IMG/VR virus record: IMGVR_UViG_2636415959_000001
Span: 1 to 33,961 of that record
Strand: one strand, 5' to 3'
DNA length: 33,961 nucleotides
From: a virus
Lineage: Duplodnaviria > Heunggongvirae > Uroviricota > Caudoviricetes
Shown here: positions 8,435 through 12,573 of the stretch, piece after piece
Position numbering within the stretch: position 1 is the first letter of the stretch
Layout: each line of letters opens with the position of its first letter
Program-made: the position numbers and the translations under genes
Notes under the pieces: model-generated
What the model saw: the letters and a program-made list of their open reading frames with translations, nothing else
What the model was told of the DNA's origin: nothing
Database searches by the model: none

Positions 8435-8540
8435 AATCATTCCTCAAGCGTGTGCTGGTGGCTGGATATAATCACGGCGTTCTGAGCGAGGGATTCGTGA
8501 CATGGTGTTTTGTTAAATTTGATTTACGGAGTGAGTGAGC

Positions 8541-10412
8541 ATGACGCCCGCCGAACTTTCAGAAAAATTATGGGACAACGCCGAAAGGGTTGCAAAGTAC
8601 CTGCTGCCAAAAGGTCACCTGGAAGGCAAAGAATGGTGTGTTGGGAATATCAACGGTGACGCCGGAAAGAGCCTTAAAATTAACATCGGTGGCAAAAAAA
8701 CGTGGGCAGACTTCGCCAGCGGCGACAGTGGTGATCTGCTTGATTTGTGGGTGTTGGTACGCAACTGCCAGCTGCATGATGCGATGCGTGAGGCAAAAGA
8801 ATTTCTCGGTCTGAAAGACGACGATCACCATTTCGAGGCGAAGAAAAAAACATTCTCCAGGCCGACGAAGAAGGGCGTGAAAAAAGCGAGCAATTGTTAC
8901 GGTTATCTGGCTTCGCGTGGTATCACCCGAGAGACAGTGGATCTGTTCCGGGTATCTGATGCGGTGGTCTGGTATCACGATGAAAATCGCGAAGTACCCG
9001 CCGTGGCATTCCCGTACATCCGGAACGGCGAACTGCTTCAAGTAAAACGCATCGGTACTGAACGACCAAACGGCAAAAAGATAATTATGGCTGAGGCGGA
9101 TTGCGAGCCATGTCTCTTTGGTTGGCAGGCCCTGGACAAATCCACGCGTCTGGTCGTTCTGTGCGAAGGCGAGATTGATTGTATGACCTTCACGCAGCTT
9201 GGTTACGACGCACTTTCTGTTCCCTTTGGCGGCGGCAAGGGTGCCAAACAGCAGTGGATTGAATATGAGTACCACAATCTGGATCGCTTTCAGGAGATCT
9301 GGCTTTGCCTGGATAACGACGATGTCGGCCGTGAAGCTGCAAAGGAAATTGCCAGACGACTTGGCGAGCATCGCTGCCGCATGGTTGAACTCCCGCACAA
9401 GGATATCAACGATTGCCTGATGAGCGGCATGGACAGTGAGTCCATCCTGGAGCACATGGAACGCGCTAAATTTTTCGATCCAGATGAACTGTGCTCGGCA
9501 GGTGATTTACTTCAGGAAACCATTGAAGCGTTTGAGCATCGCGATGTTGGCTTGTTCACCAGCCCATGGACCTCGCTGAATTACAATTTCAAATTTCGCG
9601 CCGGAGAACTGACGCTGGTAAATGGCGTGAATGGTCACGGCAAGACCGAACTGGTTGGCCATATCGCAGTTGCTGCTATGAATCAGGGGATTCGGACGTG
9701 CATCGCCTCTCTGGAACTGAAGCCAGGGAAAATGTTGGCCCGCCTGACGCGGCAGACTATCTGTACCGCATCACCGAAACGCGAAGAAATCGTTATGACG
9801 AACGAATGGTTCTCCGATCGTCTGTGGGTGTTCAAACTCACCGGCACCGCGAAAGCTGGCCGTCTGCTGGAAATCTTCGCCTATGCCCGGCGTCGGTATG
9901 GAATCGATCTGTTCGTTATCGACAACCTGGCGAAATGCGGGCTCGATGAGGAGGACTACGGCGGACAGAAAGAATTTATCGACACCCTGTGTGACTTCAA
10001 AAACGAACATAACTGTCACGTCCTTCTGGTGACGCACGCCCGCAAAACCAACGAAGCGGCACCGACCGGGAAAATGGACGTCAAAGGCACCGGCGCATTA
10101 ACCGATATGCCTGATAACGTTATGTCCGTCTGGCGCAACATTCCCCGCGAACTGGCACAACGTAAGGCTGAAAAAATGGGATACGAAAGCCTGGATAAGG
10201 ATGAGCAGGCAGCGCTCCAGATGCCAGCTTCAATGATTCGCCTGCTCAAACAACGCGAAGGTGAGGGGTGGGTTGGTGATATTGGCGCAAATTTTGATAC
10301 CCGTTCACACCAGTTTCTGGAAGGAGAAAAACAACCATTTAACTATCTGGTCGGTAAGCCTCAGAGCGAGGTGGATCTTGAATGGGAAGCAGGCAACGTT
10401 ACGAGGTACTGA
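8541..10412 (+). CDS. Bifunctional DNA primase / DnaB-family (SF4) helicase, T7 gp4-like architecture
   Basis: N-terminal primase-like region and Toprim-like motif (..VVLCEGEIDCMTF..); C-terminal Walker A-like GVNGHGKTE and Walker B-like DLFVIDNL; ATG 8541 preferred over GTG 8535. Confidence 0.8.
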   Translation: MTPAELSEKLWDNAERVAKYLLPKGHLEGKEWCVGNINGDAGKSLKINIGGKKTWADFASGDSGDLLDLWVLVRNCQLHDAMREAKEFLGLKDDDHHFEAKKKTFSRPTKKGVKKASNCYGYLASRGITRETVDLFRVSDAVVWYHDENREVPAVAFPYIRNGELLQVKRIGTERPNGKKIIMAEADCEPCLFGWQALDKSTRLVVLCEGEIDCMTFTQLGYDALSVPFGGGKGAKQQWIEYEYHNLDRFQEIWLCLDNDDVGREAAKEIARRLGEHRCRMVELPHKDINDCLMSGMDSESILEHMERAKFFDPDELCSAGDLLQETIEAFEHRDVGLFTSPWTSLNYNFKFRAGELTLVNGVNGHGKTELVGHIAVAAMNQGIRTCIASLELKPGKMLARLTRQTICTASPKREEIVMTNEWFSDRLWVFKLTGTAKAGRLLEIFAYARRRYGIDLFVIDNLAKCGLDEEDYGGQKEFIDTLCDFKNEHNCHVLLVTHARKTNEAAPTGKMDVKGTGALTDMPDNVMSVWRNIPRELAQRKAEKMGYESLDKDEQAALQMPASMIRLLKQREGEGWVGDIGANFDTRSHQFLEGEKQPFNYLVGKPQSEVDLEWEAGNVTRY

Positions 10413-10414
10413 GC

Positions 10415-10603
10415 ATGACAAACGAAATTTTAAAAGAAGCCATTGAAAACTATCAGCACCTGAAATCGCAGGTTCGCCAGCAGGAAGAAGAAGACGATGG
10501 CATTGAGTATTTCGGTGGGGTTGATACGGATTTATTTGAACGGTTCATGTTTGCCAAAAGTCAGCTTCAGGAGCTGATTAACCCGATGATTATTTTGCGA
10601 TGA
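10415..10603 (+). CDS. Hypothetical small protein (62 aa)
   Basis: ORF from ATG 10415 directly after the primase-helicase stop. Confidence 0.4.
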   Translation: MTNEILKEAIENYQHLKSQVRQQEEEDDGIEYFGGVDTDLFERFMFAKSQLQELINPMIILR

Positions 10604-10737
10604 AGTATAAGGTGTCGCACCTTAACAACGAGATCGGGGCGCTGATACTAGAAAATATCATTCTTAAAAATGAGGTCGCCAGGTTAGGCGGCAATACTGA
10701 TTTTTTGGGTAATGTGGACGTTGAGGGGAAAGCATGA
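10600..10737 (+). CDS. Hypothetical small protein (45 aa), below ORF-track cutoff
   Basis: Hand translation MKYKVSHLNNEIGALILENIILKNEVARLGGNTDFLGNVDVEGKA; start overlaps the previous stop (ATGA) and its stop overlaps the Q start (ATGA). Confidence 0.35.
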   Translation: MKYKVSHLNNEIGALILENIILKNEVARLGGNTDFLGNVDVEGKA

Positions 10738-11357
10738 AACTGGAAGCAGCTCTTAAACATTTCAGTCCTCAGGGAATGCACATCAGCGACGACGTGAAAG
10801 GAACTTCGCCGGATCGTCTCACCGGTACAGATGTAATGGCTGCTATGGGGATGGCGCAATCACAAGCCGGATTCGGTATGGCTGCATTCTGCGGCAAGCA
10901 CGAACTCAGCCAGAATGACAAACAAAAGGCTATCAACTATCTGATGCAATTTGCACACAAGGTATCGGGGAAATACCGTGGTGTGGCAAAGCTTGAAGGA
11001 AATACTAAGGCAAAGGTACTGCAAGTGCTCGCAACATTCGCTTATGCGGATTATTGCCGTAGTGCCGCGACGCCGGGCGCAAGATGCAGAGATTGCCACG
11101 GTACAGGCCGTGCGGTTGATATATCAAAAACAGAGCTGTGGGGGAGAGTTGTTGAGAAAGAATGCGGAAGATGCAAAGGTGTCGGCTATTCAAGAATGCC
11201 AGCAAGCGCCGCATATCGCGCTGTAACGATGCTAATCCCAAACCTTACCCAACCCACCTGGTCACGCACTGTTAAGCCGCTGTATGACGCTCTGGTGGTG
11301 CAATGCCACAAAGAAGAGTCAATCGCAGACAACATATTGAATGCGGTCACACGTTAG
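10734..11357 (+). CDS. Q: Late-gene antiterminator Q (lambda Q-like)
   Basis: 207 aa; C-terminal two thirds (..GTDVMAAMGMAQSQAGFG..CRDCHGTGRAVD..CGRCKGVGY..ADNILNAVTR) matches lambda Q as I recall it; zinc-finger Cys pairs. Confidence 0.8.
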   Translation: MKLEAALKHFSPQGMHISDDVKGTSPDRLTGTDVMAAMGMAQSQAGFGMAAFCGKHELSQNDKQKAINYLMQFAHKVSGKYRGVAKLEGNTKAKVLQVLATFAYADYCRSAATPGARCRDCHGTGRAVDISKTELWGRVVEKECGRCKGVGYSRMPASAAYRAVTMLIPNLTQPTWSRTVKPLYDALVVQCHKEESIADNILNAVTR

Positions 11358-11399
11358 CTGCATGATTGCCACGGATGGCAACATATTAACGGCATGATA

Positions 11400-11428
11400 T
11401 TGACTTATTGAATAAAATTGGGTAAATT
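11400..11428 (+). promoter_or_regulatory. Late promoter PR'-like (Q-modified promoter)
   Basis: TTGACT (11400-11405), 17-bp spacer, TAAATT (11423-11428), followed by TGACTCAACGATGG; matches the lambda PR' region as I recall it. Confidence 0.6.
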
Positions 11429-11463
11429 TGACTCAACGATGGATAAATGCACTCGTTAAATAA

Positions 11464-11492
11464 AGCCCTGAGTTAATAGCTCGGGGCTTTTT
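11464..11492 (+). terminator. Intrinsic terminator shortly downstream of PR' (tR'-like)
   Basis: 9-bp stem AGCCCTGAG / CTCGGGGCT with one G-T pair, 7-nt loop, TTTTT tract. Confidence 0.55.
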
Positions 11493-11635
11493 GCGTTTTA
11501 AGCACGACCTTTCTGAAAGCACATCAAACCAAATACCAGACAGACCAAAATAATCACCTTATCCGCTGTGGCTACGGTGCGGTGTGCTTTGCATAAAAGA
11601 AAACCAGCGCAATGGCTGGCTTCGTGAAAGCGGGT

Positions 11636-11670
11636 GGCAGGAGGTCGCGCTAACAACCTCCTGCCGTTTT
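11636..11670 (+). terminator. Second intrinsic terminator in the Q-S intergenic region
   Basis: Perfect 10-bp stem GGCAGGAGGT / ACCTCCTGCC, 10-nt loop, then GTTTT. Confidence 0.6.
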
Positions 11671-11789
11671 GCCCGTGCATATCGGTCACGAACAAATCTG
11701 ATTACTAAACACAGTAGCCTGGATTTGTTCTATCAGTAATCGACCTTATTCCTAATTAAATAGAGCAAATCCCCTTATTGGGGTAAGAC

Positions 11790-12113
11790 ATGAAGATGCC
11801 TGAAAAACATGACCTGTTAGCCGCCATTCTCGCGGCAAAGGAACAAGGCATCGGGGCAATCCTTGCGTTTGCAATGGCGTACCTTCGCGGCAGATATAAT
11901 GGCGGTGCGTTTACAAAAACAGTAATCGACGCAACGATGTGCGCCATTATCGCCTGGTTCATTCGTGACCTTCTCGACTTCGCCGGACTAAGTAGCAATC
12001 TCGCTTATATAACGAGCGTGTTCATCGGCTACATCGGTACTGACTCGATTGGTTCGCTTATCAAACGCTTCGCTGCTAAAAAAGCCGGAGTAGAAGATGG
12101 TGGAAATCAATAA
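11790..12113 (+). CDS. S: Holin, lambda S family (dual-start MKM)
   Basis: 107 aa, near-identical to lambda S as recalled ([39 protein letters not shown]...); upstream leader also lambda-like. Confidence 0.9.
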
Positions 12114-12573
12114 TCAACGTAAGGCGTTCCTCGATATGCTGGCGTGGTCAGAGGGAACAGATAACGGACGTCAGAAAACCAGAAATCATGGTTATGACGT
12201 CATTGTAGGAGGAGAGCTATTCACTGATTACTCCGATCACCCTCGCAAACTTGTCACGCTAAACCCAAAGCTCAAATCAACAGCCGCCGGACGTTACCAG
12301 CTTCTTTCACGCTGGTGGGATGCTTACCGTAAACAGCTTGGCCTGAAAGATTTTTCTCCAGAAAGCCAGGACGCTGTAGCTCTGCAGCAGATTAAAGAGC
12401 GTGGCGCTTTACCGATGATTGACCGTGGCAATATTCGTCAGGCAATCGACCGTTGCAGCAATATTTGGGCTTCATTGCCCGGTGCTGGCTACGGTCAGTA
12501 TGAACACAAGATCGATAGTCTGATTGCCAAATTCAAAGAAGCTGGCGGGGTGGTTAATGAAACTTCGCTATAA
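12097..12573 (+). CDS. R: Endolysin, lambda R-type lytic transglycosylase
   Basis: 158 aa, [49 protein letters not shown]... closely matches lambda R. Confidence 0.9.

Follow-up and report, generated by a model that had tools for sequence, protein, structure and literature searches.

The stretch of DNA analysed here, referred to as the window, is the whole 33,961-nucleotide IMG/VR virus record IMGVR_UViG_2636415959_000001, from a virus of the Caudoviricetes. Between the antiterminator gene Q and the holin gene S of this phage, at 11358–11789, lie a late promoter, an intrinsic terminator placed very close to the predicted start of transcription, and a leader with several conserved structures. 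The features of the region and of the genes that flank it are as follows.

10734–11357, plus strand: Q antiterminator gene, 207 aa (PF03589, E = 1.1e-57; PDB 7UBM chain Q, E = 1e-125)
11400–11428, plus strand: PR' late promoter, TTGACT-17 bp-TAAATT (promoter scan and identity with lambda PR')
11435–11440, plus strand: predicted +1 (A11435) and sigma-dependent pause element AACGAT, +1 to +6 (lambda identity and transfer of the P22 annotation)
11435–11457, plus strand: 5' stem-loop of the PR' transcript, AACGA pairing with TCGTT (minimum-energy fold)
11462–11496, plus strand: tR' intrinsic terminator, stem 11462–11490 and U tract (terminator scan, fold, and P22 and Emek annotation)
11493–11520, plus strand: leader block with the highest conservation, GCGTTTTAAGCACGACCTTTCTGAAAGC (columns without variation in 44 representative sequences)
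11515–11564, plus strand: C-rich, G-poor stretch, candidate rut site (30% C and 8% G here)
11516–11590, plus strand: long-range helix H2, AAAGCACATC (11516–11525) with GGTGTGCTTT (11581–11590) (co-variation)
11595–11623, minus strand: hairpin H3, CCAGC (11604–11608) with GCTGG (11615–11619), preceded on the plus strand by AAAAGAAAA (minus-strand terminator call)
11621–11692, plus strand: extended interrupted hairpin H4, 72 nt (RNAalifold consensus of 32 sequences including lambda)
11690–11783, plus strand: distal leader (32-sequence alignment)
11790–12113, plus strand: holin S, the first late gene, which has the two start codons Met1 and Met3 (PF05106, E = 2e-30)
12097–12573, plus strand: endolysin R of the lambda transglycosylase type (148 of 158 residues identical to lambda R)

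Downstream of the lysis genes the terminase-to-tail genes follow on the plus strand. From 12600 to 33961 the structural genes are 97–98% identical to those of SfII, SfI, SfIV and SfV. The annotations of this group and of related phages list an HK97-like head set together with Mu-type (Mup) tail proteins, in agreement with the HK97-type head and Mu-type tail of the original prediction. SfII and the closest relative, vB_EcoM-689R6, have different Q and lysis modules. The tRNA scan found no tRNA genes, and no Rfam family was matched at the gathering score anywhere in the window; the statement that this slot holds no toxin or tRNA cargo stands.

The PR' promoter is comprised of a -35 hexamer, TTGACT (11400–11405), and a -10 hexamer, TAAATT (11423–11428), separated by 17 bp. 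In the promoter scan such hexamers alone occur at chance frequency (2 found, 2.1 expected), and the promoter was therefore called on its identity to lambda PR' and not on the hexamers. The sequence from 11400 to 11428 is base-for-base that of lambda PR', including the 17-bp spacer with its Q-binding element, so that the description of this block as a lambda-type late region is borne out. Immediately 3' of TAAATT is TGACTCAACGATGG; TGACTC comes first there and AACGATGG follows it. The start site transferred from the P22 record would be A11435, 35 nt past the first base of the -35 hexamer, and the same base is reached from its offset to the Q stop codon in lambda. The AACGAT element that begins there has no difference from lambda in the alignment. 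The role of such sigma-dependent pause elements has been described (PMC9388147), and the element probably causes pausing in the present phage as well. Four bases of the initial transcribed region are unlike lambda (+9, +11, +15 and +17), and the same changes are found in HK97, HK022 and P22. Overall, 95 of the 101 bases from the Q stop codon to 11458 are those of lambda. The BLAST homology with lambda stops exactly at 11457 (+23), the 3' end of the 5' stem-loop. In one class of promoters, type D, this stem-loop pairs AATGA with TCATT, which is a single compensatory change from C-G to U-A.

The gene directly upstream of the promoter encodes a Q of the PF03589 family whose matches include the lambda Q chains in 7UBM and 7UBN, which are structures of the loading complex. 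It is identical to lambda Q at 187 of 207 residues, but the identity is not evenly distributed. Residues 32–207, which make up the DNA-binding body and the zinc ribbon, differ at only one position (175/176), while just 12 of the first 31 residues are shared. These first residues are of the Fels-1/LMessi type, with a 79–97% match to Q proteins of that type. When the region and the three genes were aligned to the lambda reference, a check called for by the original prediction, the lambda identity proposed for the region, for S (106 of 107 residues), for R and for the body of Q proved right, whereas residues 1–31 of Q did not fit it. In lambda, Q residues 1–44 form with NusA the exit-channel torus that narrows the RNA exit channel (PMC9388147). 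The present Q has Ala at position 6; in lambda Q the substitution V6A is defective. Because the first 31 residues come from another Q subtype, the full activity of this chimeric Q is an assumption. P22 gp23 and lambda Q have been reported to be interchangeable (PMC8022706).

The terminator lies just beyond the point where the lambda homology ends. Its stem has 13 pairs, 6 of them G-C, and is followed by TTTTTGCGTTTT; the tail reported by the terminator scan is TTGCGTTTTA. Counted from A11435 the stem occupies +28 to +56, and the predicted terminated RNA would be about 58–62 nt long. The predicted fold of the 63-nt RNA 11435–11497 consists of the 5' stem-loop and the terminator and has an energy of -23.3 kcal/mol (z = -5.3), and none of 200 shuffles was as good. 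The original prediction had called this an extra terminator. It is not extra, since its position corresponds to that of lambda tR' and since the homologous hairpin is named "t late or t R'; antiterminated by gene 23 protein" in the P22 record. The same hairpin is annotated as a rho-independent terminator in the record of Emek, and the other promoter classes keep the tR' stem despite different arm sequences.

How does the region between the terminator and the holin compare with that of lambda? Q and S are 432 bp apart here, against 676 bp in lambda. BLAST against lambda (NC_001416) gives 96.7% identity over 10822–11457 and 94.8% over 11620–12548, and 170 of 171 positions are shared in the last 170 bp before S, where the original prediction had put the lambda-like stretch at about 150 bp. 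Divergence had been expected in between, and it is complete: no similarity was detected between the middle segment (about 11458–11619) and its lambda counterpart, the local alignment scoring 15 against a shuffle mean of 17. As the alignment is no better than shuffles, the segment is a replacement and not the result of divergence; a distant homology to the 6S/LPR2 segment of lambda was considered and rejected on the same score. In lambda this place is taken by a 405-bp segment with the 6S RNA body, orf-64 and the LPR2 region, and here by a dissimilar segment of 161 bp. The lambda tR' itself and most of the 6S body are in the segment that is missing here. Tandem terminators in the lambda late operon are reportedly the subject of a 1983 paper. 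The target of LPR2 probe P844 (lambda 44816–44850) is found exactly in lambda and is absent from the window even when as many as 3 mismatches are allowed. Conversely, helix H2, hairpin H3 and the C-rich stretch are lacking in lambda. What the two phages share is PR', the Q-binding element, the pause element, Q residues 32–207, S and the 170 bp before S. The RNA is thus not a lambda 6S RNA, its homology ending at +23 with the rest no better than shuffles, and the expectation that the unantiterminated transcript would be far shorter than 6S agrees with the predicted lengths, about 60 nt here and 194 nt in lambda. The PreS/LPR1 RNA of lambda was also considered, on account of its name, and rejected, as it maps to the early left operon.

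Set against lambda alone, the region has two sharp junctions (11457/11458 and 11619/11620) around unrelated DNA. Is this the mark of a recent and unusual recombination that made a new short-leader version of the lambda switch in the present prophage? This is hardly credible, as the arrangement is identical in HK544, HK140, HK022, HK97, the mEp phages, Sf101, Emek and P22. At 94–98% identity and 100% coverage, 11360–11789 is found in HK544, HK140, ECP1, HK106, mEp234, mEp213, mEp043, HK542, Sf101, mEpX1, HK022, mEpX2 and HK97, and the P22-like phage Emek has 97.6% over the same positions. With HK140, HK022 and HK97, 10822–12548 forms a single unbroken BLAST block of about 95% that spans both of the lambda "junctions". 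The mosaic junction that had been proposed therefore exists relative to lambda only. The same arrangement is present in 68 phage records at at least 80% coverage. Of 5426 complete E. coli genomes, 333 contain the middle segment, 261 of these at at least 80% coverage. These counts and the unbroken HK-type match refute a new recombinant. The lambda-type segment is found at full length in 21 phage records, nearly all of them lambda or laboratory derivatives. A view of lambda as a rare outlier had to be softened, however, for its long segment is present in 216 complete E. coli genomes at at least 80% coverage.

BLAST places the real junctions of the lambda/HK-type module near 10822, which is within Q, and, at the 3' end of R, near 12548. 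The mosaicism of this module is ordinary lambdoid mosaicism, and nine complete E. coli genomes carry Q body, leader, S, R, Rz and HNH in the same combination at at least 80% coverage. The late regions of the HK, mEp and Sf101 phages are collinear with the present one from codon 30 of Q as far as the end of R, and the HK140 and mEp records annotate PR' and qut. These phages differ from the present one in having lambda-type Q N-termini and HK97- or lambda-like siphovirus heads and tails in place of the SfV type. P22 (BK000583) is more distant, with about 82% identity over 11395–11640 and 87% over 10822–12099. Its hexamers, spacing, pause element and +1 offset are nevertheless the same, its tR' is at +31 to +59 (here +28 to +56), and its record annotates "P late or P R'", qut, the 5' nucleotide of late RNA and tR'. 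The P22 leader is homologous down to the holin start, but it belongs to another sequence lineage, with compensatory changes in H2 and H4. P22 has the gene 13 and 19 lysis genes and a P22-type virion, unlike the present phage. In ES18, SE1 and Fels-1-type phages, Q is also of PF03589 but is larger, with an extra zinc-ribbon region inserted. Their late regions have the same leader cassette from the terminator 3' arm on, and their promoter and Q-binding sequences differ.

We are confident that this is a Q-lambda-family cassette for late-gene antitermination, complete and of the short-leader subtype of HK97, HK022, HK140, the mEp phages and P22. By sequence it has each of the parts of such a cassette: the family Q directly upstream, a promoter with an internal Q-binding element, a pause element, an intrinsic terminator and late genes downstream. 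The assignment to the subtype comes from the collinear homology between PR' and the holin and from the position of tR' about 30–60 nt after +1. The sequence identity, the hairpin with its conservation, and the gene content are observed; the start site, the pause, the loading of Q and Q-dependent readthrough would follow by analogy with lambda biochemistry and the P22 annotation.

A scheme for the lambda switch has been described that includes the PR' start, the pause of sigma region 2 on a -10-like element, Q loading and the Q nozzle (PMC9388147). In the present phage, RNA polymerase with σ70 would initiate constitutively at PR' with A11435 as +1, and would pause near +16/+17 when sigma binds again to the -10-like AACGAT at +1 to +6. 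Without Q, the polymerase would stop at tR' and release a two-hairpin RNA of about 60 nt. Q made from the early rightward transcript would bind the Q-binding element in the promoter spacer, load onto the paused polymerase and close the RNA exit channel, which would prevent the tR' hairpin from forming. The Q-modified polymerase would then pass through tR' and the structured leader of 290 nt into S, R and the SfV-type structural genes. A terminator so near to +1 fits this mechanism because the paused RNA would be only about 16 nt long and the stem starts at +28, so that Q could be loaded before the hairpin emerges.

The same hairpin might instead serve mainly to end the early rightward transcript after Q, or as a two-way insulator between Q and the lysis genes. 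It is 105 nt past the Q stop codon, the A-rich run 5' of it means that the minus strand also has a hairpin followed by a T-rich tail, and a second terminator-like hairpin is present on the minus strand at 11623–11600. We consider this improbable as its main role. The hairpin is downstream of PR' and its start and would be met first by any PR' transcript, P22 annotates its homologue as tR', and every promoter class keeps a terminator at a short distance. The two roles are also mutually compatible. We return, then, to tR' as the function of this hairpin.

Could the RNA of about 60 nt released at tR' have a function of its own? The late promoters of P22, 21, phi80 and 82 are already on record, through work cited in PMC7547250, as giving rise to short RNAs under antitermination control. 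In Stx phages, termination at tR' gives StxS, which binds Hfq and regulates rpoS and stx1 (PMC7547250), and lambda's 6S RNA and its neighbour, the LPR2 RNA, are both Hfq-bound (bioRxiv 10.1101/2024.10.31.621285). The predicted RNA resembles StxS in being a short, constitutive product of the late promoter that would end at tR' in lysogens. It also has a terminator hairpin with a U tail at its end and an A/U-rich linker. However, the 74-nt form of StxS arises when RNase E cuts down a longer precursor, and Hfq binding and targets of StxS have been demonstrated (PMC7547250), whereas the present RNA is a predicted one. Nearly all of it is paired in the two hairpins, which leaves only about 12 unpaired nt as a possible seed, and its 5' half is constrained by the pause element at the DNA level. 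It has no Rfam match, since a search of 11300–11850 at E up to 10 gave only sub-threshold matches driven by terminator shape, and it has neither similarity to 6S past +23 nor, anywhere in the window, the LPR2 probe sequence. A Salmonella prophage transcriptome paper makes no mention of short late transcripts. An Hfq-dependent role in trans in the lysogen, like that of StxS, is therefore unlikely for this RNA.

Beyond tR' the most conserved part of the leader is the block at 11493–11520, which is the boundary common to all promoter and Q classes. A pattern scan of IMG/VR with GCGTTTTAAGNACGNCNTTTCTGAAAGC, which covers these positions, found at least 119 contigs. Among 117 sequences, made up of IMG/VR sequences and the window, the upstream types were lambda/P22 PR' in 83, ES18/SE1-type in 21, two further types in 6 and 5, and other in 2. 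In each promoter class the terminator stem is rebuilt with a different 5' arm. The terminator 3' arm and the leader are thus a shared cassette, joined to at least four or five different promoter/Q modules.

The leader is also structured. The 361-nt RNA from +1 to the start of S has a fold z of -4.4 against shuffles. For 31 diverse leaders analysed with RNAalifold, 96.5% of cells were paired, compared with 33–47% in controls in which the pairing partners were slid by 1–3 columns, and 14 pairs were changed on both sides, compared with 0–2 in the controls; the leaders make up about four lineages with few independent compensatory events, and the alignment used for these counts is also the one that yielded the structure. 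The arms of helix H2 occur in four versions that are always complementary (pairs 73-77/133-143 of alignment A4, with 1–11 sequences changed on both sides). Hairpin H3 is conserved in alignments A3 and A4 and reads as an intrinsic terminator of the minus strand, which is also called at the homologous site of P22. No minus-strand promoter that could feed it was found in the promoter scan or by eye.

Hairpin H4 is common to lambda and to the present phage. Its outer helix pairs TTCGTGA (11621–11627) with TCACGAA (11686–11692), its middle helix pairs GCGGGT (11630–11635) with GCCCGT (11671–11676) and co-varies, and its inner helix pairs GGCAGGAGGT (11636–11645) with ACCTCCTGCC (11656–11665). Pairs 24/69 and 38/49 were each changed on both sides in 11 sequences, and the loop is found in both orientations among relatives. 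The inner helix had been proposed as a second, lambda-like terminator. This part of the original prediction is not supported: the scan, with its T-tract criterion, did not accept the tail GTTTTG, and in all relatives the helix is inside a longer conserved and co-varying hairpin. In P22-type relatives the tail is TGATCTG or TGATTTG, and the GTTTT is an internal loop of the larger conserved helix.

In the distal leader, GAACAAATC (11690–11698) and GAGCAAATCC (11763–11772) are each complementary to GGATTTGTTC (11721–11730), and the last of these is invariant in 32 of 32 sequences. A hairpin just before S pairs CCCC (11771–11774) with GGGG (11780–11783), two of its pairs being changed on both sides in 11 and 13 sequences. 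We take this hairpin (11771–11783) to be the counterpart of the 'sdi' structure of lambda S. Three open reading frames were considered as genes and rejected: one of 51 aa on the plus strand, hypothetical in HK140, one of 65 aa on the minus strand, and a P22-type frame through the terminator. Neither frame nor length is conserved across types.

These properties raise the question of whether the leader from 11493 to 11789 is itself a cis-regulatory RNA. Its C-rich stretch would act in Rho-dependent termination as a back-up against polymerases that slip past tR' in the absence of Q, and its long hairpins in RNase III processing or 5' stabilisation of the late mRNA. Such a role would add to the antitermination cassette rather than replace it. 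Across the 117 sequences the promoter/Q modules to which this one leader is attached are of at least four or five unrelated kinds, its fold, paired cells and two-sided changes are well above the shuffled or slid controls, and none of its small open reading frames is conserved across types. The C-rich stretch at 11515–11564 keeps 28–39% C and 8–12% G in every sequence type despite divergence, a composition that would be expected of a Rho loading site. A 1988 paper listed in PMC7547250 has RNase III processing sites in the Q-dependent late transcript of lambda in its title. Against this, the lineages are few and their structure comes from the alignment on which it is judged, lambda does without the first 125 nt of the leader, and the conservation could in part reflect the use of the block as a recombination boundary. 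On balance a cis-regulatory role is plausible, though we would put it at rather less than even. More doubtful, and offered only tentatively, is the proposal that the leader of about 290 nt between tR' and the holin is an undescribed cis-regulatory module, as a Rho back-up attenuator and/or through RNase III or stability, or else that the RNA of about 60 nt has an Hfq-dependent role in trans like that of StxS.

The preferred reading remains that of the short-leader antitermination cassette. As a feature it is already known, the subtype having been sequenced and annotated in HK97, HK022 and P22, and the present finding re-identifies a textbook cassette, of a subtype often carried by prophages of E. 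coli and Salmonella. It is of use for annotation: tR' can be only about 30 nt past the start, and the long 6S RNA of lambda is one of two common forms. The widely shared structured leader with its C-rich stretch and the Q with its swapped N-terminus may bear on how tightly lysogens keep the holin off.

Judged by its sequence, the Q antiterminator gene of the window is a naturally occurring chimera of two types of Q from the Q-lambda family. The replaced segment is the start of the gene:

10734-10830, codons 1-31 of Q, the Fels-1/LMessi-type part.

Across residues 1-31 only 12/31 positions agree with lambda Q, whereas across residues 32-207 the agreement is 175/176. The first 31 residues instead match, at 79-97%, the Q proteins of Fels-1, LMessi, ENT39118 and Klebsiella prophages, and the crossover lies near 10822, at a conserved TGTDVMAA motif. 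The RNA-exit-channel torus of lambda Q is built from residues 1-44, and the V6A substitution makes lambda Q defective (PMC9388147). The window Q has Ala at position 6.

The DNA upstream of Q has a similar affinity. The nin region is absent (8535-10737), and directly before Q there are a 625-aa primase/helicase-like ORF and two small ORFs, the same layout that is found in LMessi and Fostie. The primase/helicase gene, like the start of Q, resembles the LMessi/Fels-1 arrangement. For positions 10380-10821, neither the phage collection nor the complete E. coli genomes hold more than a trace of matching sequence, so the prophage may come from a host other than E. coli.

Two minus-strand features bear on antisense control of Q:

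11021-11034, minus strand, TTGC-N6-TTGC inside Q, at the position of the P22 a23 C1 site.
10694-10676, minus strand, a terminator-like hairpin in place of the P22 a23 terminator position.

The first sits where the P22 record places C1 binding at a23, an antisense promoter equivalent to lambda paQ, so CII-type antisense control of Q has probably been kept in the window prophage. The position of the P22 a23 terminator falls within the replaced N-terminal part of Q.

The leader, between the terminator tR' and the holin gene S, contains further sequences that could pair:

11595-11623, minus strand, hairpin H3, CCAGC with GCTGG.
11690-11698, 11721-11730 and 11763-11772, complementary leader segments.

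Hairpin H3 has an A run at its plus-strand 5' side and can therefore be read, in the leftward direction, as an intrinsic terminator. P22 has kept this hairpin, and lambda is without it. A leftward promoter or gene served by H3 was looked for and none was found. The plus-strand AAAAGAAAA run at H3 also resembles the Hfq (ARN)n motif.

The loop of the GGCAGGAGGT hairpin, the inner stem of the adjacent hairpin H4, occupies 11646-11655 and is present in both orientations among relatives (L085, L025, L042, L083 and L125), as CGCTAA versus TTAGCG and CGTCAA versus TTGACG, with the GGCAGGAGGT stem retained. The pattern resembles the outcome of small inversions of the DNA between the two arms, suggesting that the GGCAGGAGGT hairpin arises at the DNA level or while the DNA is replicated.

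Nearer to S, an invariant GGATTTGTTC lies between GAACAAATC and GAGCAAATCC and is complementary to each, so that two mutually exclusive pairings are possible. These alternatives adjoin the hairpin 5' of the two S start codons, and could be a switch acting on S translation or a DNA-level repeat.

Some relatives retain PR', tR' and the beginning of the leader and then carry other DNA ahead of the lysis genes. In HK633 (L011, 1164-2187) the gap between Q and the holin is ~1 kb, and in the others (L022/L082 and L019/L038/L090 in leader alignment A3) the sequence is unrelated and ORF-like. By this comparison, the leader thus serves other phages as an insertion site for cargo too.
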